A DNA stretch of 22,811 nt from Pseudomonadota bacterium (GTDB lineage Bacteria; Pseudomonadota; Alphaproteobacteria; Rs-D84), in NCBI GenBank assembly GCA_009781955.1, contig WQUT01000047.1, positions 1-22,811 on the forward strand. Direction: 5' to 3'. The notes under the pieces were generated by a model that was not told the DNA's origin, did no database searches, and worked only from the letters and a program-made list of their open reading frames with translations. This document shows, in pieces, positions 616 through 22,161 of the stretch (the first letter of the stretch is position 1; every line of letters begins with the position of its first letter). Both the position numbers and the translations under genes were made by a program.

Positions 616-1365
616 ATGAATCTCACCGCGGAACTCTTTTACGAATTGGAACGGCGGCTACGGGCCATGGGAATGGATTCCGATGCTGAAAGTTTTGATA
701 CTATAAAGGCGCGATTGAGCAACAAAGAACCTTTGTCGCCGGATGATTTCGCGCGTCAGGCGATTTACGTAATCCTCGCCGGCGGGTTTTCGCAAAAGGC
801 CGCAAAAGCGATTCATAGAAAAATAATGAACGTTCTTGAACGGCCCAATGTAGGGGCAAAGAACCACCCACCAAAATCTGCGATTTTATCGGGGCCCGAT
901 AATTATTCGCCCCTACAAAGCGCGAGCCAAGAACAGGCATTATTCTCTGAACTTATAAACTTATTCAACAACAAAAACAAAATAAATGCGGTGGTAAAAA
1001 TTTGGTTGGGCCGCAAGAAATATCGCGACGATTATTATGCCCCGAAAGACAGCGATTTGGAAACAAAATTGAGCTATCTGTCCAAATTGCCCCATATTGG
1101 AAAAATAACCGCGAATCATCTGGCGCGGAATCTGGGCGAAGATGTTGTGAAATATGATATTTGGATCCAGCGGCTGGGCGTCGCATTCGCCGCCGGCGGC
1201 GAAGAATTGAAATCCAAAATAGACAACGGCAACCTGGATCCGGATGTGCGGGCGGCATGCGATAAAATGTTCGCGCATCTGGCGCGCGTTACCGGCCTGC
1301 CCCGCGGATACATTGACGTGGTGCTGTGGAAGGCATGCCAGAATCATATGATAGGGGGGATATAG
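616..1365 (+). CDS. Helix-hairpin-helix (HhH-GPD-like) DNA-glycosylase superfamily protein carrying an in-frame 67-bp repeat insertion
   Basis: A 249-aa ORF starting 22 nt after the HD gene. HhH-like segment LSKLPHIGKITANHLARNLGEDVVKYDIWIQRLG (hairpin G-x-G, followed by an Asp) and an N-terminal QAIYVILAGGFSQKAAKAI helix typical of the fold. Residues VGAKNHPPKSAILSGPDNYSPLQ are encoded by the repeat at 850..916. Confidence 0.5.
   Translation: MNLTAELFYELERRLRAMGMDSDAESFDTIKARLSNKEPLSPDDFARQAIYVILAGGFSQKAAKAIHRKIMNVLERPNVGAKNHPPKSAILSGPDNYSPLQSASQEQALFSELINLFNNKNKINAVVKIWLGRKKYRDDYYAPKDSDLETKLSYLSKLPHIGKITANHLARNLGEDVVKYDIWIQRLGVAFAAGGEELKSKIDNGNLDPDVRAACDKMFAHLARVTGLPRGYIDVVLWKACQNHMIGGI
850..916. 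repeat. 67-bp palindromic element (GTAGGGGCAAA ... TTCGCCCCTAC), copy 1, in-frame inside the CDS
   Basis: Near-identical to 2988..3054 (5 differences). The terminal arms equal the 28-bp perfect palindrome at 9820..9847. There is an internal hairpin AAAATC-tgc-GATTTT. Confidence 0.9.
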
Positions 1366-2987: not shown

Positions 2988-3054
2988 GTAGGGGCAAAGA
3001 ACCACCCACCGAAATCTGCGATTTCGTCGGGGCCCGGTAATTATTTGCCCCTAC
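2988..3054. repeat. 67-bp palindromic element, copy 2 (intergenic, 5 nt after the ung stop)
   Basis: gtaggggcaaagaaccacccaccgaaatctgcgatttcgtcggggcccggtaattatttgcccctac. The internal hairpin is GAAATC-tgc-GATTTC, a compensatory change relative to copy 1. Confidence 0.9.
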
Positions 3055-3099
3055 ATAATCCTTGATTTCCGCGTTCGGCATGTTATAATCAGCGGCGCC

Positions 3100-6570: not shown

Positions 6571-6596
6571 AACACGGGGCTTGGCCCCGCGTTTTG
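6571..6596 (+). terminator. Rho-independent terminator after aspS
   Basis: CGGGGC-ttg-GCCCCG (6575..6589) followed by a TTTT-containing tail. Confidence 0.7.
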
Positions 6597-6683
6597 ATTT
6601 AAGATTTATGATTTACGGATTTAAGATTTGTTTTAATATGAAAAGATTTAAATCTTAAATCAGCAAATCTTAAATCCTAAATT
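6596..6683. repeat. GATTTAA-word periodic inverted-repeat element, copy A
   Basis: Left arm gatttaa-gatttat-gatttac-ggatttaa-gatttg faces the right arm aaatc-ttaaatc-agc-aaatc-ttaaatc-ctaaat. It shares the exact 21-mer gatttacggatttaagatttg with 16981..17001. Confidence 0.85.
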
Positions 6684-6746
6684 ATGAAAACCTTCTTATC
6701 GCATGATTTCCGGCCGCTGGGTTATAATACAGGCGGGGGAGAAGTC

Positions 6747-9760: not shown

Positions 9761-9819
9761 TCCCCGTTCCCCTTGTATTTTGATTATAATGTTCTATACT
9801 GAGGCAGTAAAGTGAAAAT

Positions 9820-9847
9820 GTAGGGGCAAATAATTATTTGCCCCTAC
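9820..9847. repeat. 28-bp perfect palindrome GTAGGGGCAAATAA|TTATTTGCCCCTAC (core-less form of the 67-bp element)
   Basis: An exact palindrome equal to the two terminal arms of the elements at 850 and 2988. It lies 12 nt upstream of the uvrB ATG. Confidence 0.9.
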
Positions 9848-9859
9848 AAGTTGGTTAAA

Positions 9860-11974
9860 ATGAATAAGAAAATTTTTGATCTTAAAAGCGACTATAAACC
9901 CACCGGCGACCAGCCGCGGGCTATACGCGAACTTGTGGGCGGCCTCCGCGCGGGCGAACGGTCCCAGGTTCTGCTGGGCGTCACCGGTTCGGGCAAGACG
10001 TTCACAATGGCGAACGTAATCGCCGAAATGGGCCGGCCCGCCCTAATTATGGCCCCGAACAAGATTCTGGCGGCGCAGCTTTATACCGAGATGAAGGGAT
10101 TCTTTCCGAACAACCATGTGGAATACTTTGTTTCTTACTATGATTATTACCAGCCCGAGGCCTATGTTCCCACAACCGACACCTATATAGACAAAGATGC
10201 GTCAATCAACGACCAGCTGGACCGCATGCGGCATTCCGCCACGCGCGCCATGCTGGAAGAACGCGACGTGGTCGTCGTCTCGTCCGTATCCAGCATTTAC
10301 GGATTGGGCTCGCCGGAAACATACTCGGAAATGAAGGCGACATTCGCGCCGGGCGATCGGGTCGGCATGCGCGATGTAATGCGCGGGCTGGTTGATTTGC
10401 AATACAAACGCAACGATATAGGATTCAATCGCGGCGAATTCCGCGTCCGCGGCGACAGTCTGGATATTTTCCCCAGCCACAGCCAAGACCGCGGCTGGAA
10501 AATGTCGTTCTTTGGCGACGAGGTTGAAGAGATTTGGGAATTTGATATTTTAACCGGGCAAAAAATACGGCGGCTTGAACGCGCGGTGGTGTATCCGAAT
10601 ACACATTACGCCACGCCGATGCCCAGCATTTTGCAGGCCTTGAATGAAATCCGCAGCGATCTGGGGCCGCGTCTGGAATATTTTCACGATAATATGAAGT
10701 ATATAGAAGAGCAGCGTCTGCGCGAGCGGACAAATTTTGACATAGAGATGATGGAGGCGACGGGCACATGCCGCGGGATAGAGAATTATTCGCGTTATCT
10801 GTCCGGGCGCCGTGCGGGCGATCCGCCGCCGACACTGTTTGAATATCTGCCCAAAGACGCTATTTTATTTGTGGACGAGTCGCACGTGTCGGTGCCGCAG
10901 ATTGGCGGAATGGCGCGCGGCGACCGCGTGCGCAAGGAAACGCTGGCCCAATACGGATTCCGTTTGCCCAGCGCGATAGACAACCGCCCGCTGACATTTG
11001 ACGAATGGGACAGATTCCGCCCGCAAACAATATTCGTGTCCGCTACGCCGGCGGATTGGGAATTGGAACAATCGCGCGGCATAGTCGCGGAACAGGTGAT
11101 ACGCCCGACCGGCCTCTTGGATCCGGTTTGCGAAGTGCGCCCGACAAAGAATCAGGTGGATGATTTGCTGGGAGAAATGATCCCCCTCCTGCGGAGGGGT
11201 GCCGCGCCTGTATTGCGCGGCGGGGAGGGTTTTGGATCACGCGAACCCTCCCAGTCAATTTTGCCCGCAAACAAGCGCGGCAAAATTGCCACCCCTCCAA
11301 AGGAGGGGAATCCAGGTCGCGTCCTTATCACCACTCTCACCAAAAAAATGGCAGAGCAATTGACGGACTATCTGACCGAAAACGGCGTCCGCGCGCGGTA
11401 TCTGCACAGCGATATTGAAACATTGGAGCGCATAGAATTGCTGCGAGAGCTGCGCATGGGAAAATTTGACGTCCTGGTCGGAATCAATCTGTTGCGCGAA
11501 GGGCTGGACATACCGGAATGCGAATTGGTCGCGATTATGGATGCGGACAAAGAGGGATTTCTGCGCAGCGCGCGTTCGCTGATCCAGACAATCGGCCGCG
11601 CCGCGCGGAATATAAACGGCCGCGTGATATTGTATGCGGATAAAATTACGGATTCCATGCGCGTGGCGTTGGATGAAACCGCGCGGCGCCGCGAAAAGCA
11701 AATGAAGTATAACGCCGAGCATAAAATCACGCCGCGCGGAATCGTGAAAACCATATTTGAAGAGGTGAAAGACCGCGGGGAAAGAACCGATAAAAAGCGT
11801 CAATTCGTTTATTCCAAGACCGGCGTTATGGATGCGGAATCTTTGAAAAAAGAAATAGCGAAACTGACGAAAGAAATGCGCCGCGCGGCCGAAGACCTGG
11901 AATTTGAACGCGCGGCAGGGCTCCGCGATACGGTGCATAAATTGGAAGACGATTTGTTATTGCTGGGGGGCTAA
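9860..11974 (+). CDS. uvrB: Excinuclease ABC subunit B, with an in-frame hairpin-array insertion
   Basis: [10 protein letters not shown], Walker [29 protein letters not shown], the helicase motifs, and the C-terminal [14 protein letters not shown] domain. I prefer ATG 9860 (MNKKIFDL) to the listed TTG 9851. Confidence 0.95.
11182..11308. repeat. About 127-bp array of five consecutive hairpins inserted in-frame in uvrB
   Basis: H1 CCCCTCC-tgc-GGAGGGG (11183..11199). H2 GCCGCGC-ctgtatt-GCGCGGC (11201..11221). H3 GGGAGGGTT-n12-AACCCTCCC (11223..11252). H4 AATTTTGCC..GGCAAAATT (11257..11287). H5 CCCCTCC-aaa-GGAGGGG (11292..11308). It is translated as ...[46 protein letters not shown]... Confidence 0.85.
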
Positions 11975-12814: not shown

Positions 12815-13405
12815 ATGGATGTTCGGATGCAAGAAATTAAATTAAAAAATGTTGGCGAAACGCGGGCCTGGGCGGCGGAATTCGCAAAGACCCTGTGTGC
12901 GCCGTGCGTTGTTGCCCTGCACGGCGATCTGGGAATGGGCAAGTCAGAAATCGCGCGCAGCATTATTCAAACTCTCTGCGGCGCGGACACGGTGGTTCCC
13001 AGCCCGACGTTCACGCTGGTGCAGAGTTATGAATGCTCCGTCGCATGCCCCCCCTCTTGGGGGGGGCTGTCGCGCCGTAGCGATAGCGAAGGCAGACTGG
13101 GGGGGGCTACTTCCGAAAAAAATAGTAATAAAAAGTCATTAAATGAAGAAGTCCCCCCTCGTCGCCCTTTGGGCGACACTCCCCCCCACCGGGGCCCCCG
13201 CGCGACAGAGCGGATTTCCCATTTTGACCTATACCGCATTACTGATGCGTCGGAATTGGAAGAAATAGGCCTGGGCCATGCATGTGCGAATGATATTACC
13301 CTGATAGAATGGCCGGAAATCGCCGCCGGTTTTCTGCCCGCCAATACTATTCATATTTATTTGGAAGAATATGAAGGTGGCAGAAAATTGGAAATGACAG
13401 AATGA
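12815..13405 (+). CDS. tsaE: tRNA t6A37 threonylcarbamoyl-transfer protein TsaE (YjeE-type P-loop ATPase) with an in-frame insertion
   Basis: LHGDLGMGKSEIAR (Walker A), SPTFTLVQSYE, HFDLYRI and LIEWPE are the TsaE hallmarks. The 196 aa exceed the usual length of about 150-160 aa because of the insert at 13047..13208. The start could also be ATG 12827. Confidence 0.85.
   Translation: MDVRMQEIKLKNVGETRAWAAEFAKTLCAPCVVALHGDLGMGKSEIARSIIQTLCGADTVVPSPTFTLVQSYECSVACPPSWGGLSRRSDSEGRLGGATSEKNSNKKSLNEEVPPRRPLGDTPPHRGPRATERISHFDLYRITDASELEEIGLGHACANDITLIEWPEIAAGFLPANTIHIYLEEYEGGRKLEMTE
13047..13208. repeat. About 160-bp G-run/C-run nested-hairpin element inserted in-frame in tsaE
   Basis: GCCCCCCC-tctt-GGGGGGGC (13047..13067). 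Outer inverted repeat CTGTCGCGC (13067..13075) with GCGCGACAG (13200..13208). GGGGGG-ct-ACTTC with GAAGT-CCCCCC around an A-rich centre. GTCGCCC-ttt-GGGCGAC (13161..13177). Confidence 0.85.
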
Positions 13406-13508
13406 CAAAGTGACAGAGTGACAGAGTTATTGCAACCGCGCACAAAGTGCGCGGTTATTATTTGTTGCGGCTTTGCCGCAACACCACAACTCTGTCACTT
13501 TGTCACTC
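13392..13508. repeat. TGACA-octamer periodic inverted repeat enclosing two terminator hairpins (convergent tsaE / ftsA-rpe ends)
   Basis: Four TGACA at 8-nt period (13395, 13403, 13411, 13419) face two TGTCA (13493, 13501). Inner hairpins are AACCGCGCAC-aaa-GTGCGCGGTT (13434..13456) and GTTGCGGC-ttt-GCCGCAAC (13464..13482). Confidence 0.85.
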
Positions 13509-15287
13509 TTTGCGCAGCAAAGATTGCACCGCCAATGGAAAATCCGCGGCATTGGCCAGATACGACGCGGACGCCAGGAAATCCGCGCCCGCGGCCCAGC
13601 ATAGTTTCGCCGTCGCCGGATTGATTCCGCCATCCACGCTGATTTTGAAACACAACCCATATTTCCGCCGGGTATTGGCAAGCGTTGAAATCCGATACAC
13701 TGCATCCGGCAGGAATTCTTGCCCGTTCGGGCCGGGGCGTATAGACATCACCAGAATTTCATCAACCTCTTTTAATATCGGTTTCAATATTTCCAGCGGC
13801 GAATCCGGGTGCAGCGCGATTCCCGCCCGCTTTCCCAATTCGCGTATCTTTTTCAGCGCCGCCCGCGCGCCGTTCGTGCCGGTTGATATTATTATGGTAT
13901 CCGCCCCGGCCGCCGCCGCCTGTTCCGCCCAGATTATCGGGTTTTCGGTCATCAGGTGAACATTCAAATGAGCGTTTGTGTGTTCGCGGATAAAGCGAAG
14001 CTCGTCCATGCTGCCGGTTATTCTGTTCACATAAAATCCATCCATCACGTCGCAATGAATCATGCTGATGCCGCCGGATTCAAACAGCTTGTAAGTCGTG
14101 GGGCTGCGCATATTAAAACCCTGGGTGCTGGGCATAATCGGAATAAAGGCCGGCGTTTTCGCGATCTTTCTGCGGCGGAATATTTTGGGAAGCCAGGATA
14201 ACAATCTGCCCCATTTTTCCCGGCGGGCGACATAGTGTTTCGCGCGCGCCGCATCGTTCTGCCAGATTTGTTTGGCGCAGGCGGCGACGGCGGCGTCCGC
14301 CCCCAGATTATGAACGGGCAGCCCGAACATCTCGCCCGCCAGATTTTCTATTCCGGGTATATTCGTGCCGCCGCCGGAAATATAGACTGCTGACGGCCCG
14401 TATTTTTCTATGTGCCGCGCCAATTCTGCCCGCGCCAGTTCCATGATTTCGCGCAATGCGGGCAGGCCCGCGTCGCACACGTCGGCGCGCGACAATTCGT
14501 AACCGGCGTCCGCGACAGCGAATCTGTCCATTTCGCTGGATGCGGCGACAAGGCTGGCCACCTTTATCTTTTCCGCGTCGGGGAAAGGAATGCGCAGCCT
14601 GTCGGCTATATCGTTTGTGATTTTAATCTGGCCCATCGGGATCTTTGACAGCGACACGATGCCGCGCGCGGTCCAGCATGACACGGTTGTCCATGCCGCG
14701 CCCAGGTCAATGAAGACGGCGGGCGCGGCGGATTTGCGCGCGGCCATCCCGATAAGCACCGCCGGGTCAAAAAAGCCCGCCGATTCTATGTGCGCGGTGC
14801 GCAATACGGATTGCGCCGAATGCATGTCTTCGCGCGAATAAGAGATGACATGGAACACCGACGACAGGGCGCAATCGGTCTGGCCGACCGGCAGCGATAT
14901 GTTCTTGAATCCGGGGATGTCATAGCGCAGCGGGATTATATGCAGCGGCGCCTCGTTCGCGTTCTGCAAATCAAACAATATTTCGGAAATCTGTTTGCCG
15001 ATGTCGTTCGCGGAAATCTTGCGCGCGCCGCCCCATTCCGTCGTTTTATTGATTATCGCCGACCGCGCGAATCCGAAATCGCCGGTGACATAGGCCGATT
15101 CAAAATGCTTTCCAAGTTGGGATTCCAGCTCGTCAACCGCGGTTTTAAGGGCGAACGCGGTGTCGGGCGATTCGCAGATTTTCAGAACGCTCTGCGCGAC
15201 GCGGCCGCCGCGCACGCGAACGCCCAGCGCGCGGACCGCAGAGGATCCCAGATCAAGGCAAAGAAAAGACGAGTCAATCAGGTTCAT
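13503..15287 (-). CDS. ftsA: Cell-division protein FtsA fused in-frame to ribulose-phosphate 3-epimerase
   Basis: N-terminal roughly 370 aa: actin-fold FtsA (LCLDLGSSAVRALGV, VFIDLGAAWTTV, ITNDIADRL, YISGGGTNIPGI), ending in an amphipathic helix KWGRLLSWLPKIFRRRK. The frame then continues without a stop into an Rpe domain (IHCDVMDG, NVHLM, LVMSIRPG, ISVDGGI). I prefer ATG 15287 (MNLIDSS) to 15311, which lies in the repeat. Confidence 0.8.
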   Translation of the reverse strand: MNLIDSSFLCLDLGSSAVRALGVRVRGGRVAQSVLKICESPDTAFALKTAVDELESQLGKHFESAYVTGDFGFARSAIINKTTEWGGARKISANDIGKQISEILFDLQNANEAPLHIIPLRYDIPGFKNISLPVGQTDCALSSVFHVISYSREDMHSAQSVLRTAHIESAGFFDPAVLIGMAARKSAAPAVFIDLGAAWTTVSCWTARGIVSLSKIPMGQIKITNDIADRLRIPFPDAEKIKVASLVAASSEMDRFAVADAGYELSRADVCDAGLPALREIMELARAELARHIEKYGPSAVYISGGGTNIPGIENLAGEMFGLPVHNLGADAAVAACAKQIWQNDAARAKHYVARREKWGRLLSWLPKIFRRRKIAKTPAFIPIMPSTQGFNMRSPTTYKLFESGGISMIHCDVMDGFYVNRITGSMDELRFIREHTNAHLNVHLMTENPIIWAEQAAAAGADTIIISTGTNGARAALKKIRELGKRAGIALHPDSPLEILKPILKEVDEILVMSIRPGPNGQEFLPDAVYRISTLANTRRKYGLCFKISVDGGINPATAKLCWAAGADFLASASYLANAADFPLAVQSLLRKE

Positions 15288-15296
15288 GGTTAGGCG

Positions 15297-15339
15297 CTGG
15301 GCACTGGGCACTGGGCACTAGTTACTAGTGCCCAGTGCC
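15297..15339. repeat. CTGGGCA-heptamer hairpin between ftsQ and ftsA
   Basis: ctgggca x3, then ctagt|t|actag tgcccag tgcc. A 16-nt perfect inverted repeat pairs 15307..15322 with 15324..15339. The right end overlaps the ftsQ stop codon. Confidence 0.9.
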
Positions 15340-16028
15340 TATTTTACAAATGTTCTTTCCGGATCGCGCAGATCCAGGACGCGGATATCGCGGGCGAGGA
15401 TGTCGGTTTTCTTGTCCAGCTCGGCCAGTCTGCGGATCGCGCCCTCTGCGTTATTTTCCGGCAGTTTGACGATGACGCCGGAATTCAGCGCCAAGTCCCA
15501 CCGCCGCCCGTCGGTCCATTCCAGATAGTTCAATTCGGCCATGATTTTTGGCGCGCGCGTCACGGCGCCCGCTATGCCGCCCAGATCGTTCGGCAAATCC
15601 CCGCGAAAGACCAGCGAGTTTTCCGGCCTCTGCCCCGACGGGCGGTTTATTTTCGTCCCGTCGGCGCCGATTGGATAATAATGCGTTCCGTCCGTCCAGG
15701 CGGCGATCGCGGTCCGCATTTGGACCTTGATTTTCAGCGTCCCGTTCGGCATGCGGCGCACGGACGCCGCGTCTATGTCCGGAATGGCGGAAATCCGCGC
15801 CAATACGTCGCCCAATTTCACCCGGTAAGTCGGCGTGCGCGGGGAAATGCCGATGGCCGCGGCGATGGCGGATTTGTCCGCCGCGCCGTTTCGCGAAGAA
15901 ACCGAGATGGCCCGTATATCGGCAAAGCCGCCGCGCCCCATGACCAGCATGGTCAGCCGCACGGAAAGATAGGTCGCGATTATAATGGCGAATGCGAAAG
16001 CCGCCCAAAAAAGAAAGGTTTTTCTCAT
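15339..16028 (-). CDS. ftsQ: Cell-division protein FtsQ (POTRA domain)
   Basis: 229 aa with a single N-terminal TM segment (FLFWAAFAFAIIIATYLSV). It has a POTRA-like segment and lies immediately upstream of ftsA on the same strand. Confidence 0.75.
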   Translation of the reverse strand: MRKTFLFWAAFAFAIIIATYLSVRLTMLVMGRGGFADIRAISVSSRNGAADKSAIAAAIGISPRTPTYRVKLGDVLARISAIPDIDAASVRRMPNGTLKIKVQMRTAIAAWTDGTHYYPIGADGTKINRPSGQRPENSLVFRGDLPNDLGGIAGAVTRAPKIMAELNYLEWTDGRRWDLALNSGVIVKLPENNAEGAIRRLAELDKKTDILARDIRVLDLRDPERTFVK

Positions 16029-16530: not shown

Positions 16531-16636
16531 CCGGTGAATGGTAACTGGCGGCTGGTGATCCGTAATCGGAAACCATCTGGCGATATAAGTTATAATACCA
16601 ATCACCAGTCACCAGTTACCAACCACCAATCACTGC
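16531..16636. repeat. CACCAG-heptamer periodic inverted repeat in a divergent promoter region
   Basis: Left arm ccggtga-atggtaa-ctggcgg-ctggtga (16531..16558). Right arm tcaccag-tcaccag-ttaccaa-ccaccaa-tcactgc (16602..16636). The 43-nt spacer contains TATAAT (16591..16596). Confidence 0.8.
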
Positions 16637-16657: not shown

Positions 16658-16966
16658 ATGAACAATGTAAACAAATTCATACAGCTGGCGAATTTCTATA
16701 ACCAGATGCTGGCCGTCATGGCGGCCATATGCGTTCAAAAGGGCGGCATCCCGATAGAGCAATACGTCGGGCGATTCTTTGCCGCGGACGTTCTGGAATT
16801 CCTGGCCGAATACGGCGCAAAGCTGCAAACCGACGATGAGTCTGTCCAGCGCGTCGCCGCGCTGTTCAGGGCGGAATATGAAAAGGCGAAAGATCTGACC
16901 ACGCCCAGCCAAAAGCCGATATTTGAGATGACGCTGGAAGAATTTGAAAAAGTGATGAACATTTAG
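16658..16966 (+). CDS. Hypothetical protein (102 aa)
   Basis: GGGGGGAG lies 7 nt upstream of the ATG. No motif recognised. Confidence 0.55.
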   Translation: MNNVNKFIQLANFYNQMLAVMAAICVQKGGIPIEQYVGRFFAADVLEFLAEYGAKLQTDDESVQRVAALFRAEYEKAKDLTTPSQKPIFEMTLEEFEKVMNI

Positions 16967-17051
16967 GATTTAAGATTTAAGATTTACGGATTTAAGATTT
17001 GCGGATTTAAGATTTAAAAAATCAAAAATCATCGGTCTTAAATCTTAAATT
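16966..17051. repeat. GATTTAA-word periodic inverted-repeat element, copy B
   Basis: ggatttaa-gatttaa-gatttac-ggatttaa-gatttgc-ggatttaa-gattt faces aaaaatc-aaaaatc-atcggtc-ttaaatc-ttaaat. It starts at the stop codon of the upstream gene. Confidence 0.85.
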
Positions 17052-19327: not shown

Positions 19328-20581
19328 ATGTTGTTCACGAAACTGGAAAGAAAAATAGCGTTCAGATACCTGCGGGCCAAGGGCCGCGGGTTCGGCAGCG
19401 TTATATCATGGGTGTCATTGCTCGGCATCATGCTGGGCGTCGCGACGCTGATCGTCGTTATGTCCGTGATGTCCGGATTTCATCACGTATTGCTGAACCG
19501 CATAATCGGCATGAACGGCCATGTCGTGATTTATTACCAGGACGGCGCGATCAAGGACTATGATTTCCTGATTGATAAAATAAGGCAGAATAAAATCGTG
19601 GAACAAAACCTGGTCAGCATAATTCCGATCGCCGAAGGCCAGGTGATGATTTCCGCAAACGGAAACAATTCCGGCGCGATGGTTCGCGGGGTGCGCTTGA
19701 CGGATCTGGCTAACACCGCGGTTGCGAGCAAGATTTACGGGCGGCCCTTGGCAGAGGTAAAGGATAACGAGCTGGTGATGGGGATGAGCCTGTCGCGGTC
19801 GCTGCGCCTGACGCTGAACGACAGCGTGTCGCTGATATCCGCCAACGGCGGGACGGCCACGGCATTCGGCACCATGCCGCGCATCATGTCTTACCCGGTG
19901 GTGTCCAGTTTCTTTATGGGGATGTATGAATATGATTCCGGGTATGTGTTCATGTCCCTCTCCACCGCGCAGAAATACCTGAACATTCCTGACGGCGTGA
20001 CGCACATAGACCTGTTCCTGAAAGACCCGGAAAAAACAACCGCGGTGCGGACGGCGCTGTCTGACGCTCTGCCGGCCGGATTCGTGGTGCGCGACTGGCG
20101 CGACATGAACCGCGGGTTTGTCGGCGCGTTGCAGGTTGAGTCTAATGTCATGTTCCTTATCCTTATGCTTATTGTGATTGTCGCGGCGTTCAATATCGTT
20201 TCGTCGCTGGTAATGATGGTGAAAGACAAGTCCAAGGACATCGCGGTTCTGCGCACGTTCGGCGTGTCGCGGCGCAGCATGATGAAAATATTTATCCTTT
20301 CGGGCACATCCATCGGCGTTATCGGCGCGGCGGTCGGAACGGCGCTCGGCATCATAATCGCGGCATACATAGAACCGATACGCCAGTTTTTTCAATGGGC
20401 GACGGGTCGCGATTTATTTCCGGCGGAACTGTATTTTCTGTCCGAGCTGCCATCCGACATATCCGCGGCGTCCGTGGTCGGGATAGCGTTGACCGCAATC
20501 GCGCTGTCATTCCTGGCGACGCTGTATCCCGCGTGGCGCGCGTCAAAACTGGATCCGGTAGAGGTGTTGAGAAATGAGTAA
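19328..20581 (+). CDS. Lipoprotein-releasing ABC transporter permease (LolC/LolE family)
   Basis: 417 aa. FRYLRAKGRGFGSVISWVSLLGIMLGVATLIVVMSVMSGF matches the LolC/E N-terminus. There is a large periplasmic loop and a C-terminal FtsX-type 3-TM bundle ending ..YPAWRASKLDPVEVLRNE. Confidence 0.9.
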   Translation: MLFTKLERKIAFRYLRAKGRGFGSVISWVSLLGIMLGVATLIVVMSVMSGFHHVLLNRIIGMNGHVVIYYQDGAIKDYDFLIDKIRQNKIVEQNLVSIIPIAEGQVMISANGNNSGAMVRGVRLTDLANTAVASKIYGRPLAEVKDNELVMGMSLSRSLRLTLNDSVSLISANGGTATAFGTMPRIMSYPVVSSFFMGMYEYDSGYVFMSLSTAQKYLNIPDGVTHIDLFLKDPEKTTAVRTALSDALPAGFVVRDWRDMNRGFVGALQVESNVMFLILMLIVIVAAFNIVSSLVMMVKDKSKDIAVLRTFGVSRRSMMKIFILSGTSIGVIGAAVGTALGIIIAAYIEPIRQFFQWATGRDLFPAELYFLSELPSDISAASVVGIALTAIALSFLATLYPAWRASKLDPVEVLRNE

Positions 20582-21251
20582 GATCACTTTTGTTTTTGGC
20601 GCGAGTGGGGCGGGGAAAACAACGTCCATAATTCCCAAGATTATGGCGGAAATGGATGATCCGAAAGTTATTGAAATAGATGACATAAAGCGAGAATTGT
20701 CGTCAGAATTACCAGATGCCCAAAAGAACAAATTGAGAAATGCGCAGTTTAATGTAGCCATTAAAACTGCGATTTCAGAGAATAAAAATATTATTATTTC
20801 TTTCCCGTTCCTGATGCTGAACCCAAAACGAGTAATAGATATTTATAAGGCGGCCAAACTGAAAGAATATGATACAGAAGCGGTATTTGTTCCGGTCAGT
20901 TTCAAACGGTCAGAGCAAGGCGTTGATTACAGGTATGTTCAAACTTTACTGGGAGAGCCGACGGGCGAGGTACCGCGCAGATTGAAACCGTGGCGAAATA
21001 AAATCCTGCATCTGGCGGTACCTGTCACGCTCAAGATTTTGAAAGAGAGCAAGCAGGTAAACAGAATCAGACTGTTCAATCGCGATGGGACAGAGTTGCT
21101 TGATAATAAGATAAAGACATTCTTTGCGGAACAAAATCGTAAATTATCCAAAGAAGAACAAGAAGACTATTCTGAAAAGTTTAAGAAGATACAAAATTTT
21201 CTTAACGATCCGGAAAACAGAAAAATCTTTAACCAAAAGCTATATCAATAG
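20574..21251 (+). CDS. Zeta-toxin-like / AAA-type P-loop kinase family protein, AT-rich insert between lolC/E and lolD
   Basis: Walker A FGASGAGKTT, followed by VIEIDDIKRE (resembling the zeta-toxin D-x-D-x-x-R catalytic segment). Its ATG overlaps the end of lolC/E by 8 nt. It is visibly lower in GC than both neighbours. Confidence 0.45.
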   Translation: MSKITFVFGASGAGKTTSIIPKIMAEMDDPKVIEIDDIKRELSSELPDAQKNKLRNAQFNVAIKTAISENKNIIISFPFLMLNPKRVIDIYKAAKLKEYDTEAVFVPVSFKRSEQGVDYRYVQTLLGEPTGEVPRRLKPWRNKILHLAVPVTLKILKESKQVNRIRLFNRDGTELLDNKIKTFFAEQNRKLSKEEQEDYSEKFKKIQNFLNDPENRKIFNQKLYQ

Positions 21252-21999: not shown

Positions 22000-22161
22000 G
22001 ACTACCCCGGATTTCCATCGGCAACAAGTTGCCGGGAAATCCAACCCTTCTGAGAAGGGTATCTTCGTGCTCATTAGGTTAAAATTAATGAGCGCTAGTT
22101 CCCCTTCGCAGAAGGGGAGGAAAGCTTGGCAGCTATGCTGCCTTGGCTTTCCGGGGTAGTC
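22000..22161. repeat. 162-bp element with 12-bp perfect terminal inverted repeats enclosing five hairpins (MITE-like or structured RNA)
   Basis: TIR GACTACCCCGGA (22000..22011) with TCCGGGGTAGTC (22150..22161). Hairpins: GGATTTCC..GGAAATCC with inner GGCAAC/GTTGCC; ACCCTTC-tga-GAAGGGT; GCTCATTA-n9-TAATGAGC; CCCCTTC-gca-GAAGGGG; GGAAAGC..GGCAGC-tat-GCTGCC..GCTTTCC. Confidence 0.85.

Follow-up and report, generated by a model that had tools for sequence, protein, structure and literature searches.

An in-frame insert in an alphaproteobacterial uvrB gene belongs to a dispersed family of hairpin modules associated with DUF559 nuclease genes

REP and REPIN sequences are short extragenic palindromes with a GTAG head, paired in inverted orientation, scattered over the genome and flanking one Y1 transposase gene (RAYT), and the GC clusters and double-hairpin elements of fungal mitochondria are short G+C-rich hairpins that have spread in the genome, also into coding regions. 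Bacterial MITEs include Correia, ERIC and Nezha (reviewed in PMC10969869), and Rickettsia palindromic elements (RPEs), as that review summarises them from Ogata et al. (2000, 2002), are palindromes of ~100-150 bp that lie in frame in unrelated alphaproteobacterial housekeeping genes. Vsr-like free-standing homing endonucleases were described in connection with "fractured genes" by Dassa et al. 2009 (PMC2677866), and I-Bth0305I has been grouped with VSR/DUF559 (PMC3424549).

The stretch of DNA analysed here (the window; 22,811 nucleotides, G+C ~52%) comes from a contig of a Pseudomonadota bacterium and contains a uvrB gene with a palindromic insert (Table 1). The uvrB ORF encodes 707 aa from a TTG start at 9851, and the identical public protein P0001, named excinuclease ABC subunit UvrB, has 704 aa, implying an ATG start at 9860. 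Alignment to solved UvrB structures is interrupted over query residues 446-488, a stretch that corresponds to ~5 residues in the solved proteins; the insert separates the first helix of helicase domain 3 from the strand that follows it, and the rest of the protein is normal. Outside the insert, the ORF is 76-83% identical to relatives labelled as Alphaproteobacteria or Rickettsiales MAGs. The five-hairpin core, 11183..11308, is exactly 42 codons long and stop-free in the uvrB frame, with a peptide reading PLLRRG...PKEG and then NPG; the element is open in five of the six reading frames. In the predicted structure of this UvrB, residues 450-486 have pLDDT <50 and no secondary structure, between a helix at 435-448 and a strand at 490-495; because this model is of no more than moderate quality, with a mean pLDDT of 62 and 50 sequences in its alignment, the disordered surface loop is to be read as a prediction. 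The first-pass annotation had placed about 40 extra residues between this helix and strand and had held that the reading frame was kept through them, and both statements agree with the break in the alignment and the uninterrupted ORF. Its description of uvrB as essential does not hold, as this is a repair gene that is normally non-essential.

The insert is 126-132 nt long, has the ends ATC-CCCCTCC ... GGAGGGG-AAT, and is an inverted pair of ~45-nt modules of the form ATTCCCCTCC-nnn-GGAGGGG-TG-(variable hairpin)-GGGGTGG. Its central hairpin, P3, occupies the place that a DUF559 gene takes in long members of the family. All five consecutive stems are perfect and the first and last are the same, as had been noticed in the first pass; the span given there, 11182-11308, captured a real insert, the limits of which shift to ~11180..11311 when set by the conserved family ends ATT...AAT. 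An RNA fold of 11170-11320 reached -88.3 kcal/mol vs -56.7 +/- 4.3 for shuffles (z -7.3, with 0 of 200 shuffles as good), the DNA fold of the insert region gave z -8.0, and H1 pairs with H5 in the minimum-energy fold, enclosing H2 to H4 in a shape like a cloverleaf. The sequence CCCYYCNNNGRRGGG occurs five times in the window vs 0.04 expected.

Table 1. Features of the uvrB insert, its host gene and related elements. Positions without a locus handle (L) refer to the window.
Feature	Position	Strand	Basis or remark
uvrB host gene	9851..11974	+	solved-UvrB match E 5e-237; P0001 identity 100%
Short non-autonomous hairpin-module element, in frame in uvrB	11180..11311	+	ends set by alignment with siblings L130 and L133:4542-4656
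H1, CCCCTCC / GGAGGGG	11183-11189 / 11193-11199		perfect stem
H2, GCCGCGC / GCGCGGC	11201-11207 / 11215-11221		perfect stem
H3, GGGAGGGTT / AACCCTCCC	11223-11231 / 11244-11252		perfect stem
H4, AATTTTGCC / GGCAAAATT	11257-11265 / 11279-11287		perfect stem
H5, CCCCTCC / GGAGGGG	11292-11298 / 11302-11308		perfect stem
Left module: P1 CCCCTCC-TGC-GGAGGGG, TG, P2 GCCGCGC/GCGCGGC, GGGGAGGG	11178..11230	+	R1 44.1 bits, E 5e-11, full model
Right module, inverted: P1' CCCCTCC-AAA-GGAGGGG, P2' AATTTTGCC...GGCAAAATT, CCCTCCC	11245..11313	-	R1 40.7 bits, E 6e-10, full model
Central hairpin P3, GGGAGGGTT/AACCCTCCC, 12-nt loop	11223..11252	+	sequence and fold
Sibling copy, intergenic, after T2SSF gene	L133:4542-4656		same 56-kb contig as window
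Sibling copy	L130:122-271		other contig
Sibling copy, after argS stop codon	L129:2450-2502		other contig
Sibling copy in relative	L003:12255-12414		
Sibling copy in relative, after UDG gene	L001:492-656		
Diverged intergenic relative	22000..22161	+	R1 matches, fold z -12
Palindromic insert of tsaE (12815..13405), also in frame	13046..13215	+	Pfam TsaE match split in two

The family to which the uvrB segment belongs was defined by an alignment (A2) and a covariance model (R1) built solely from loci in other genomes and phyla. R1 recognises both halves of the insert over the full model length and in inverted orientation, with scores inside the 24-65 bits spanned by 180 family members at 100 other loci, and the insert has the family layout of a P1 with a 3-nt loop, a variable P2, and a GGGG(T/A)GG arm pairing with a distal CC(A/T)CCCC. 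P2 covaries in the family, with 172 cells changed on both sides vs 60 +/- 6 in shuffles and a covariation score of 0.19 vs 0.03-0.05 for slid partners. A pattern scan of a genome collection placed the module in at least 12 phyla and at least 120 loci; copy numbers and the phylum list are lower bounds, and the source genome is absent among the matches listed. Members reside in frame in many genes, and verified hosts of short and long forms in other phyla are HsdR, HsdS, Type ISP enzymes, an N6/N4 methyltransferase and an MFS transporter.

Sibling copies exist at other loci, and R1 also matches the two halves of the intergenic element at 22096-22161 (+; 24.8 bits, E 6e-5) and 22000-22064 (-; 18.5 bits, E 0.006), where the modules stand back to back so that their GGGGTAG/CTACCCC ends form the closing stem. 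The P2 of this element (CTTGGCAGCTATGCTGCC) is common to L003:12349-12414. The recurrence of the module at the intergenic element, and a shared modular hairpin family colonising coding sequence, had both been proposed from the window alone; R1, the siblings and the in-frame copies in other phyla bear this out, and the copies at L133:4542-4656 and 22000..22161 place the modules elsewhere in the same genome. The many-phylum spread of the family and the nuclease gene of its long forms lie beyond the reach of the first-pass annotation.

At the Rfam gathering score, the window and ten loci returned no family for the module, the only matches above threshold being tRNA and the unrelated Flavo-1, which in L044 sits away from the module; a permissive Rfam search with the element and two copies from other phyla gave chance-level matches to microRNA-like hairpins only. 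Literature searches with the DNA motif, the module-encoded peptides and DUF559 turned up no account of such elements or of the DUF559 link, and a blastn search of a plasmid collection with two elements found no match, a result of low weight with such short queries. The family is apparently undescribed.

At the uvrB site itself, the insert is missing from 113 of the 120 closest UvrB proteins, and most close relatives have 662-671 aa. Six relatives carry different, unrelated palindromes at the same site, and the extra residues there are palindromic inserts, not the long non-palindromic loop that had been considered as an alternative; the view that the segment is not protein-like is likewise supported by the fit to a structured-repeat model from unrelated genomes and by the many relatives that lack it. 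Random insertion followed by selection does not obviously account for palindromes in six relatives at one site. The uvrB inserts of L003-L007 have no R1 match and that of L001 a weak one (10 bits); these, together with the tsaE insert of the window (9.1 bits, E 5), are not counted as family members. The tsaE insert has the layout P1-P2-P3-P2'-P1' with C7/G8 stems and a fold z of -4.8, and TsaE is 196 aa long here vs 125-140 aa in relatives. It goes with a C6/G6 variant that is also seen at uvrB and argS of the L001/L129 organism. A separate family of GTAG-headed hairpins is found in the window at 850-917, 2988-3055 and 9819-9849.

The flanks of the uvrB insert, GAAATGATC and AATCCAGGT, show no clear direct repeat, and a near-identical empty site was not found; the insertion event is therefore reconstructed rather than observed. 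The likeness of AATCAGGT (11150) to AATCCAGGT (11309) was considered as a vestigial target duplication and rejected because it spans 9-10 nt with an indel and is possibly due to chance. Two members have long duplications at their flanks, of about 50 nt in L001 and 390 nt in L046, which would predict nicks set far apart.

The modules are associated with DUF559. An ORF of this family (PF04480, E 1e-27) lies between left and right modules in 12 of 120 module loci among the matches listed, and DUF559 is the sole gene found between the same module ends. The units in other genomes are bounded by GGGGTGG and CCACCCC, and the DUF559 C-terminus runs into the right module, reading ..NHPALxGTPPxEGN. A protein search with one such unit retrieved 3220 proteins at E <= 1e-10, and module-encoded peptides are present in 95 of the best 120. 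In the long forms L085, L019 and L046 the host ORF is continuous. No DUF559 copy was found in ~32 kb of the source contig and ~90 kb from relatives, and nothing shows current mobility in the source lineage.

Taken together, these observations suggest that the uvrB segment is, with good probability, a non-autonomous copy, ~130 bp long, of a dispersed hairpin-module element, and that it entered the gene in frame where the first helix of helicase domain 3 ends. Such an element would consist of two inverted ~45-nt modules, each with P1 (CCCCTCC/GGAGGGG), a variable P2 and a GGGG(T/A)GG arm, closing on the central hairpin. Its persistence may be explained by a length that is a multiple of three and a G+C-rich sequence that is stop-free in the uvrB frame. 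The insert is presumably translated, and its 42-44 encoded residues would be tolerated by UvrB, which could still fold because the prediction places them in a disordered loop that joins one secondary-structure element to the next; nothing suggests a benefit to UvrB. Full-length forms carry a nuclease gene of the DUF559 type (Vsr-like PD-(D/E)XK) between the same two modules. The short forms most likely arose from these by internal deletion and are mobilised in trans or spread when a nick or break at the conserved hairpin ends induces copying. Whether the DUF559 nuclease is the mobilising enzyme we consider an even call: a nuclease of ~110 aa would not by itself make a transposase, and its functional tie to the hairpins is putative. 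We put forward more tentatively, and at rather less than even confidence, that modules and DUF559 constitute an undescribed class of selfish element across bacterial phyla, in which a ~0.45-kb unit has a Vsr-like nuclease between composite hairpins, inserts into genes that are read through without intron or intein, and gives rise to nuclease-less derivatives of ~110-190 bp.

A different account, which we regard as possible though on the unlikely side, is that the modules are REP-like structured repeats, either used by the host as terminators, protein-binding or recombination sites or propagating themselves, with DUF559 as a passenger or secondary invader and the short elements spread by another enzyme or by recombination. 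The low share of listed module loci with a DUF559 gene would fit this, as would the lack of DUF559 in the source-lineage sequences covered, the many Chryseobacterium loci with a single pattern match (counting exact matches only), and copies that directly follow stop codons (L129, L133 and L001). A terminator role is impossible, however, for modules within coding regions, and across units from many phyla the place of the DUF559 ORF is constant and its frame continues into the right module, which argues for a co-evolving unit and not for random invasion. It is also conceivable, if improbable, that the uvrB site generates or replaces palindromes locally, by template switching, hairpin-primed synthesis or nested insertion in an older palindrome, so that there was no single transposition hit. 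The six relatives with different palindromes at one position point this way, as do many palindromes of the clade with arms of tandem 7-8-nt units, in which architecture but not sequence is conserved, and the L003 element, which lies within the loop of a larger palindrome. Yet the insert studied here has no outer palindrome around it, fits a cross-phylum model rather than being idiosyncratic, and can be aligned over its whole length with copies at unrelated loci.

That the insert has been co-opted, either as an RNA or DNA structure tuning uvrB expression through translational pausing or mRNA stability or as a new functional protein loop, is quite improbable in our judgement: the very stable fold inside a coding region, the preserved frame and the five open frames would be in keeping with it, but the same kind of element occurs in intergenic DNA and unrelated genes, most relatives do without it, and its peptide is predicted to be disordered. 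We give hardly any credence to the segment being absent from the protein, as an intein, a translational bypass, an excised intervening sequence, or an assembly artefact or pseudogene. Strong structure within an ORF recalls known bypass and intervening elements, a resemblance only, and the ORF is intact. An intein was ruled out on the lack of Cys/Ser/Thr or His-Asn junctions and of a nucleophile behind them (the insert starts with Pro and ends with Gly, followed by Asn-Pro-Gly), and ribosome bypass because a hop from ATC to ATC (11180 to 11310) would land out of frame with a conserved stretch of 14 residues and straight reading is in frame. Assembly artefact and pseudogene were ruled out by the same protein on two contigs and from several sources, and by the same phenomenon in relatives.

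In-frame selfish palindromes in genes have so far been treated as a peculiarity of Rickettsia, and here a different family, with a module common to at least 12 phyla, behaves likewise, invading uvrB, restriction-modification genes and transporters. The link to DUF559 offers a concrete, testable hypothesis for a large domain family without known function; if true, DUF559 would have a role in mobility, as a nuclease whose targets are hairpin or cruciform ends. The link further suggests a form of mobility that relies on a nuclease and is compatible with coding sequence although no splicing takes place. In practice, annotation can use the module model to mark such inserts, and the model can account for low-complexity loops (SPPxEGW, TPPxEGN, FPSxGGV) that look odd in predicted proteins as well as for contig breaks in metagenome assemblies.

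Among the described systems, the GC clusters of fungal mitochondria differ from the module family in being organellar, in belonging to other sequence families and in having no associated nuclease gene of the DUF559 type. REP/REPIN sequences share with it the paired inverted palindromes, the dispersal and the one dedicated enzyme gene flanked by repeats, but the module has no GTAG head and the associated gene is DUF559 rather than a Y1 transposase, which sets it outside REP/RAYT. In fractured genes, too, a small Vsr-fold nuclease gene lies within protein-coding hosts and hairpins adjoin the nuclease ORF; there, however, split inteins or an intron rejoin a host gene that has been interrupted, and the hairpins regulate translation from the 5' side (PMC2677866). 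The host ORF of the module family is instead continuous and the unit presumably read through, the same module is inverted on both sides and there are nuclease-less short forms; uvrB accordingly is one continuous ORF with an insert that has no nuclease ORF.

The insert works like a MITE or an RPE; its mode of movement is inferred. Like a MITE, the uvrB element is small, multicopy and without a transposase gene, has terminal inverted repeats, lies in frame in a host ORF, as MITEs occasionally do, and has a longer form with the same ends (PMC10969869). In contrast to MITEs, the longer form encodes a Vsr-like nuclease and no recognised transposase that could serve as a parent, each inverted repeat is a composite of hairpins, one stem of which covaries, and no clear short target-site duplication was seen. 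From RPEs, as the same review describes them, the family would be distinct in its G+C-rich CCCCTCC/GGGGTGG modules, and it differs in its presence in many phyla instead of one genus and in long-form ends that flank DUF559. With RPEs as portrayed there (PMC10969869), the uvrB insert nevertheless shares the form of a palindromic repeat of ~100-150 bp in frame in a protein-coding gene, presumably read through as an extra peptide where the protein fold permits and with both intergenic and intragenic copies.

The ORF at 9851..11974 (+) is an otherwise ordinary uvrB: it aligns to solved UvrB proteins at E 5e-237, a public protein identical to it is annotated as UvrB ('MAG: Proteobacteria bacterium'), and the next relatives, at 76-83% identity, are labelled as Alphaproteobacteria or Rickettsiales MAGs. 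Alignments to solved UvrB are interrupted exactly at residues 446-488, where those proteins have ~5 residues, and the insert is absent from 113 of the 120 best UvrB matches, which are 662-671 aa long. An in-frame insertion made of consecutive perfect hairpins had been proposed here in the first-pass annotation from sequence alone, and both parts of that description hold: the core comprises 42 stop-free codons in the uvrB frame (5 of 6 frames are open in this copy), and 11183..11308 consists of five hairpins in a row with perfect stems of 7, 7, 9, 9, and 7 bp, the first and fifth having the common stem CCCCTCC/GGAGGGG. The region folds much more strongly than its shuffles as RNA (z -7.3), with a z of -8.0 as DNA, and in the minimum-energy fold the terminal hairpins pair mutually to give a cloverleaf-like structure enclosing the three inner hairpins. 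The string CCCYYCNNNGRRGGG occurs 5 times in the window, where 0.04 occurrences would be expected. In an AlphaFold model of this UvrB, of moderate overall quality (mean pLDDT 62), the insert lies after helix 435-448 and before strand 490-495; because residues 450-486 have pLDDT below 50 and no secondary structure, it is predicted to form a disordered loop just ahead of that strand. The uvrB copy is probably translated and would be neutral for UvrB.

The terminal hairpin CCCCTCC-nnn-GGAGGGG (P1) is also found between genes in two relatives (loci L003:12255-12414 and L001:492-656), with the common layout ATT-P1-TG-P2-GGGG(T/A)GG ... CC(A/T)CCCC-P2'-P1'-AAT, in which P2 is a second hairpin and the primed elements belong to an inverted right module. 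We scanned one genome per species for ATTCCCCTCCNNNGGAGGGG and recovered at least 120 loci; those listed contain 193 pattern matches representing 147 distinct modules, in which conservation reaches past the search pattern to include TG, a hairpin of variable sequence, and GGGGTGG. Going by record titles, hosts among the matches listed include Chryseobacterium, Flavobacterium, cyanobacteria, Clostridia, Planctomycetaceae, Gammaproteobacteria, Patescibacteria, Acidobacteria, Cloacimonadales, Fibrobacteres, Anaerolineaceae, and Rickettsiales. In an alignment of 80 sequences, 172 cells of P2 were changed on both sides compared to 60 +/- 6 in shuffles, and the covariation score was 0.19 compared to 0.03-0.05 with slid partners. 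P2 is thus under selection as a nucleic-acid structure rather than as a peptide.

A covariance model built from module sequences of other genomes matched the uvrB insert twice, in inverted orientation, with 44.1 and 40.7 bits, inside the reference range of 24-65 bits (180 members, 100 other loci). The same model gave 24.8 and 18.5 bits on the intergenic element at 22000..22161, where recurrence of the module had been proposed, and the leftward extension of the source contig contains a compact 110-nt copy from the insert's own subfamily, which starts at a T2SSF gene's stop codon (L133:4542-4656). The module corresponds to no Rfam family. Scanning metagenomes for P2 of the insert yielded two further copies (see table), and alignment with sibling copies places the ends of the uvrB copy at ~11180 and ~11311. 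One Planctomycetaceae MAG carries identical extended module ends on six contigs. The uvrB insert is a member of a shared family with conserved ends and a structurally selected hairpin, of which many copies are scattered through single genomes.

The family also lives inside ORFs, as the first-pass annotation had suggested in speaking of elements that colonise coding sequence: 32 of 197 P1 hairpins at the pattern loci listed fall within open frames 900 nt or longer, and the intragenic cases that we checked are real genes interrupted in frame. Several frames and both orientations are represented among the modules. Between 57 and 73 of 80 modules are open per frame, compared to 48-56 in composition-matched shuffles, so that stops are somewhat rarer in modules. 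Restriction-modification genes (HsdR, HsdS, Type ISP/MmeI-like, DNA methyltransferase) are strikingly frequent among the checked hosts, a bias for which targeting, tolerance, and selfish-element conflict are alternative explanations. Many module-rich MAGs of different phyla (e.g. those of L017, L021, L033, L039, L040, and L047) have one isolate-naming style (Cd354_bin.., Nm470_bin.., Im510_bin.., Cyl330_bin..), which suggests one study or habitat. These may be a termite-gut MAG set; if so, the module family may be shared within one community.

Locations of module copies, intragenic hosts, and other palindromes
Feature	Location	Observation
Complete element	L130:122-271	downstream of lpxA-like gene; aligns end to end with uvrB copy
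Single module	L129:2450-2502	directly after argS stop codon
HsdR host	L085:1010-4921	single 1303-aa ORF with five modules and DUF559
HsdS host	L079:1776-3137	Methylase_S match in two stretches
Type ISP/MmeI-like host	L019:2508-4175	Type_ISP_C split by DUF559
Type ISP/MmeI-like host	L046:684-3539	DUF559 within N6_Mtase/MmeI-type ORF
N6/N4 methyltransferase host	L060:1-1680	module inside continuous ORF
MFS transporter host	L126	MFS_1 match in two stretches
Tandem-unit-arm palindromes	window 6596-6689, 16961-17018, 13406-13509, 16533-16627, 15295-15340	
Tandem-unit-arm palindromes, outside window	L133:1745-1800; L003:12200-12470; uvrB inserts of L004-L007	
GTAG-headed hairpin family	window 850-917, 2988-3055, 9819-9849; L001:716-745	

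Within this clade, the uvrB site itself is a hot spot. Of the 120 closest UvrB proteins, seven exceed 680 aa, and in every one of them the additional residues fall at this single position; in the six others (L001, L003-L007) the DNA there is strongly palindromic (z -4.3 to -8.4) and unrelated in sequence, whereas L008, which has no insert, is unstructured at the site. A non-palindromic, lineage-specific loop, the competing reading raised at first pass, thus does not describe these relatives. The inserts of L004-L007 have arms of tandem 7-nt units, with common arms (CAGAGCG units) in L005 and L006. That of L001 is a C6/G6 variant whose protein, P0008, is also encoded on a second contig, L002; its insert peptides (VNCSPLGGSR..., TPPKGGVV) reappear in an in-frame insert in ArgRS of L129 (L129:643-2451), a locus from the same JGI metagenome as L002 (JGI20166J26741). 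Because these inserts share peptides, a second palindromic family is present in at least two housekeeping genes. Three explanations of the hot spot are possible: the site may be targeted repeatedly, it may be selected as the sole loop that tolerates inserts, or one ancestral insert may have turned over. Elements may also have nested in hairpins already present, as suggested by the L003 element, which lies within the loop of a larger palindrome.

A second in-frame palindromic insert of ~56 codons (~13046-13215), with five hairpins and C7/G8 stems, splits the Pfam match of tsaE (window 12815-13405) in two; TsaE is 196 aa here compared to 125-140 aa in most relatives, and that of L005 is also long (206 aa). 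Many palindromes in the window and relatives have arms in which a 7-8-nt unit is repeated two to four times in tandem (GATTTAA, GTGACAGA, GGGCACT, GGTGAnn, CAGAGCG, TTCGGGA, CGTCAyT, GTGATyT), an architecture that recurs with a unit sequence differing from copy to copy; two GGGCACT-type copies are present on the source contig. Distinct from these is a hairpin family, GTAGGGGCAAA...TTTGCCCCTAC, with a GTAG head like that of REPs. Two of its copies, each 68 nt long, share 93% identity, and one copy immediately upstream of uvrB consists of a perfect 13-bp stem. Among other genes, a single ~600-aa ORF (window 13503-15311, -) has FtsA and ribulose-phosphate 3-epimerase Pfam matches, an apparent fusion also seen in relatives (L003:14893-16671, L005:4591-6369). 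A Zeta_toxin-like ORF (window 20574-21251) lies between FtsX-type permease and ABC ATPase genes, overlapping the permease end; the same protein occurs in an independent Logan assembly (L132) as well, and no such gene lies between the permease and ATPase genes of L003.

The family includes a nuclease-bearing long form. In 12 of 120 pattern loci among the matches listed, a ~110-codon ORF lies between left and right modules, occupying the place of the central hairpin's loop, and encodes DUF559 (PF04480, E 1e-27), with the endonuclease-like protein 3hrl as nearest solved structure; its C-terminus runs on into the right module (...NHPALxGTPPxEGN). VSR, DUF559, and the homing endonuclease I-Bth0305I form one group in a survey of PD-(D/E)XK nucleases (PMC3424549). 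With one DUF559 unit as protein query, 3220 proteins were matched at E <= 1e-10, under the names 'DUF559 domain-containing', 'endonuclease domain-containing', or 'very-short-patch-repair endonuclease'; module-encoded peptides (such as SPPxEG[WC], FPSxGGV, and TPPxEGN) occur in 95 of the top 120, a ranking that favours such matches given the module-encoded tails of the query. The short elements are probably deletion derivatives of the DUF559 unit, whose nuclease would act on the modules. Host sequence is duplicated around the L001 element (~50 nt of the UDG gene 3' end including the stop, L001:441-490 and 657-708) and around the L046 module pairs (~390 nt of a Type ISP gene segment, L046:3935-5713), and such long direct repeats differ from the short target duplications that ordinary transposons leave. 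Speculatively, they could stem from nicks made far apart and then filled in, which would suit a Vsr-type nickase.

Overall, the initial observation is confirmed and its interpretation supported. Literature searches of partial coverage found no description of the module or of its DUF559 link, and an earlier description is possible. Among known systems, Rickettsia palindromic elements are closest in behaviour to the uvrB element, together with MITEs that make in-frame fusions (PMC10969869). We do not class the family as a strict MITE, since the one gene found between its ends encodes a nuclease and not a transposase. Vsr-like homing endonucleases of 'fractured genes' depend on split inteins (PMC2677866), whereas the host ORFs of the module family are read straight through. 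The uvrB insert is a further example of a known phenomenon, and the module family looks like an undescribed, widespread variant of it.
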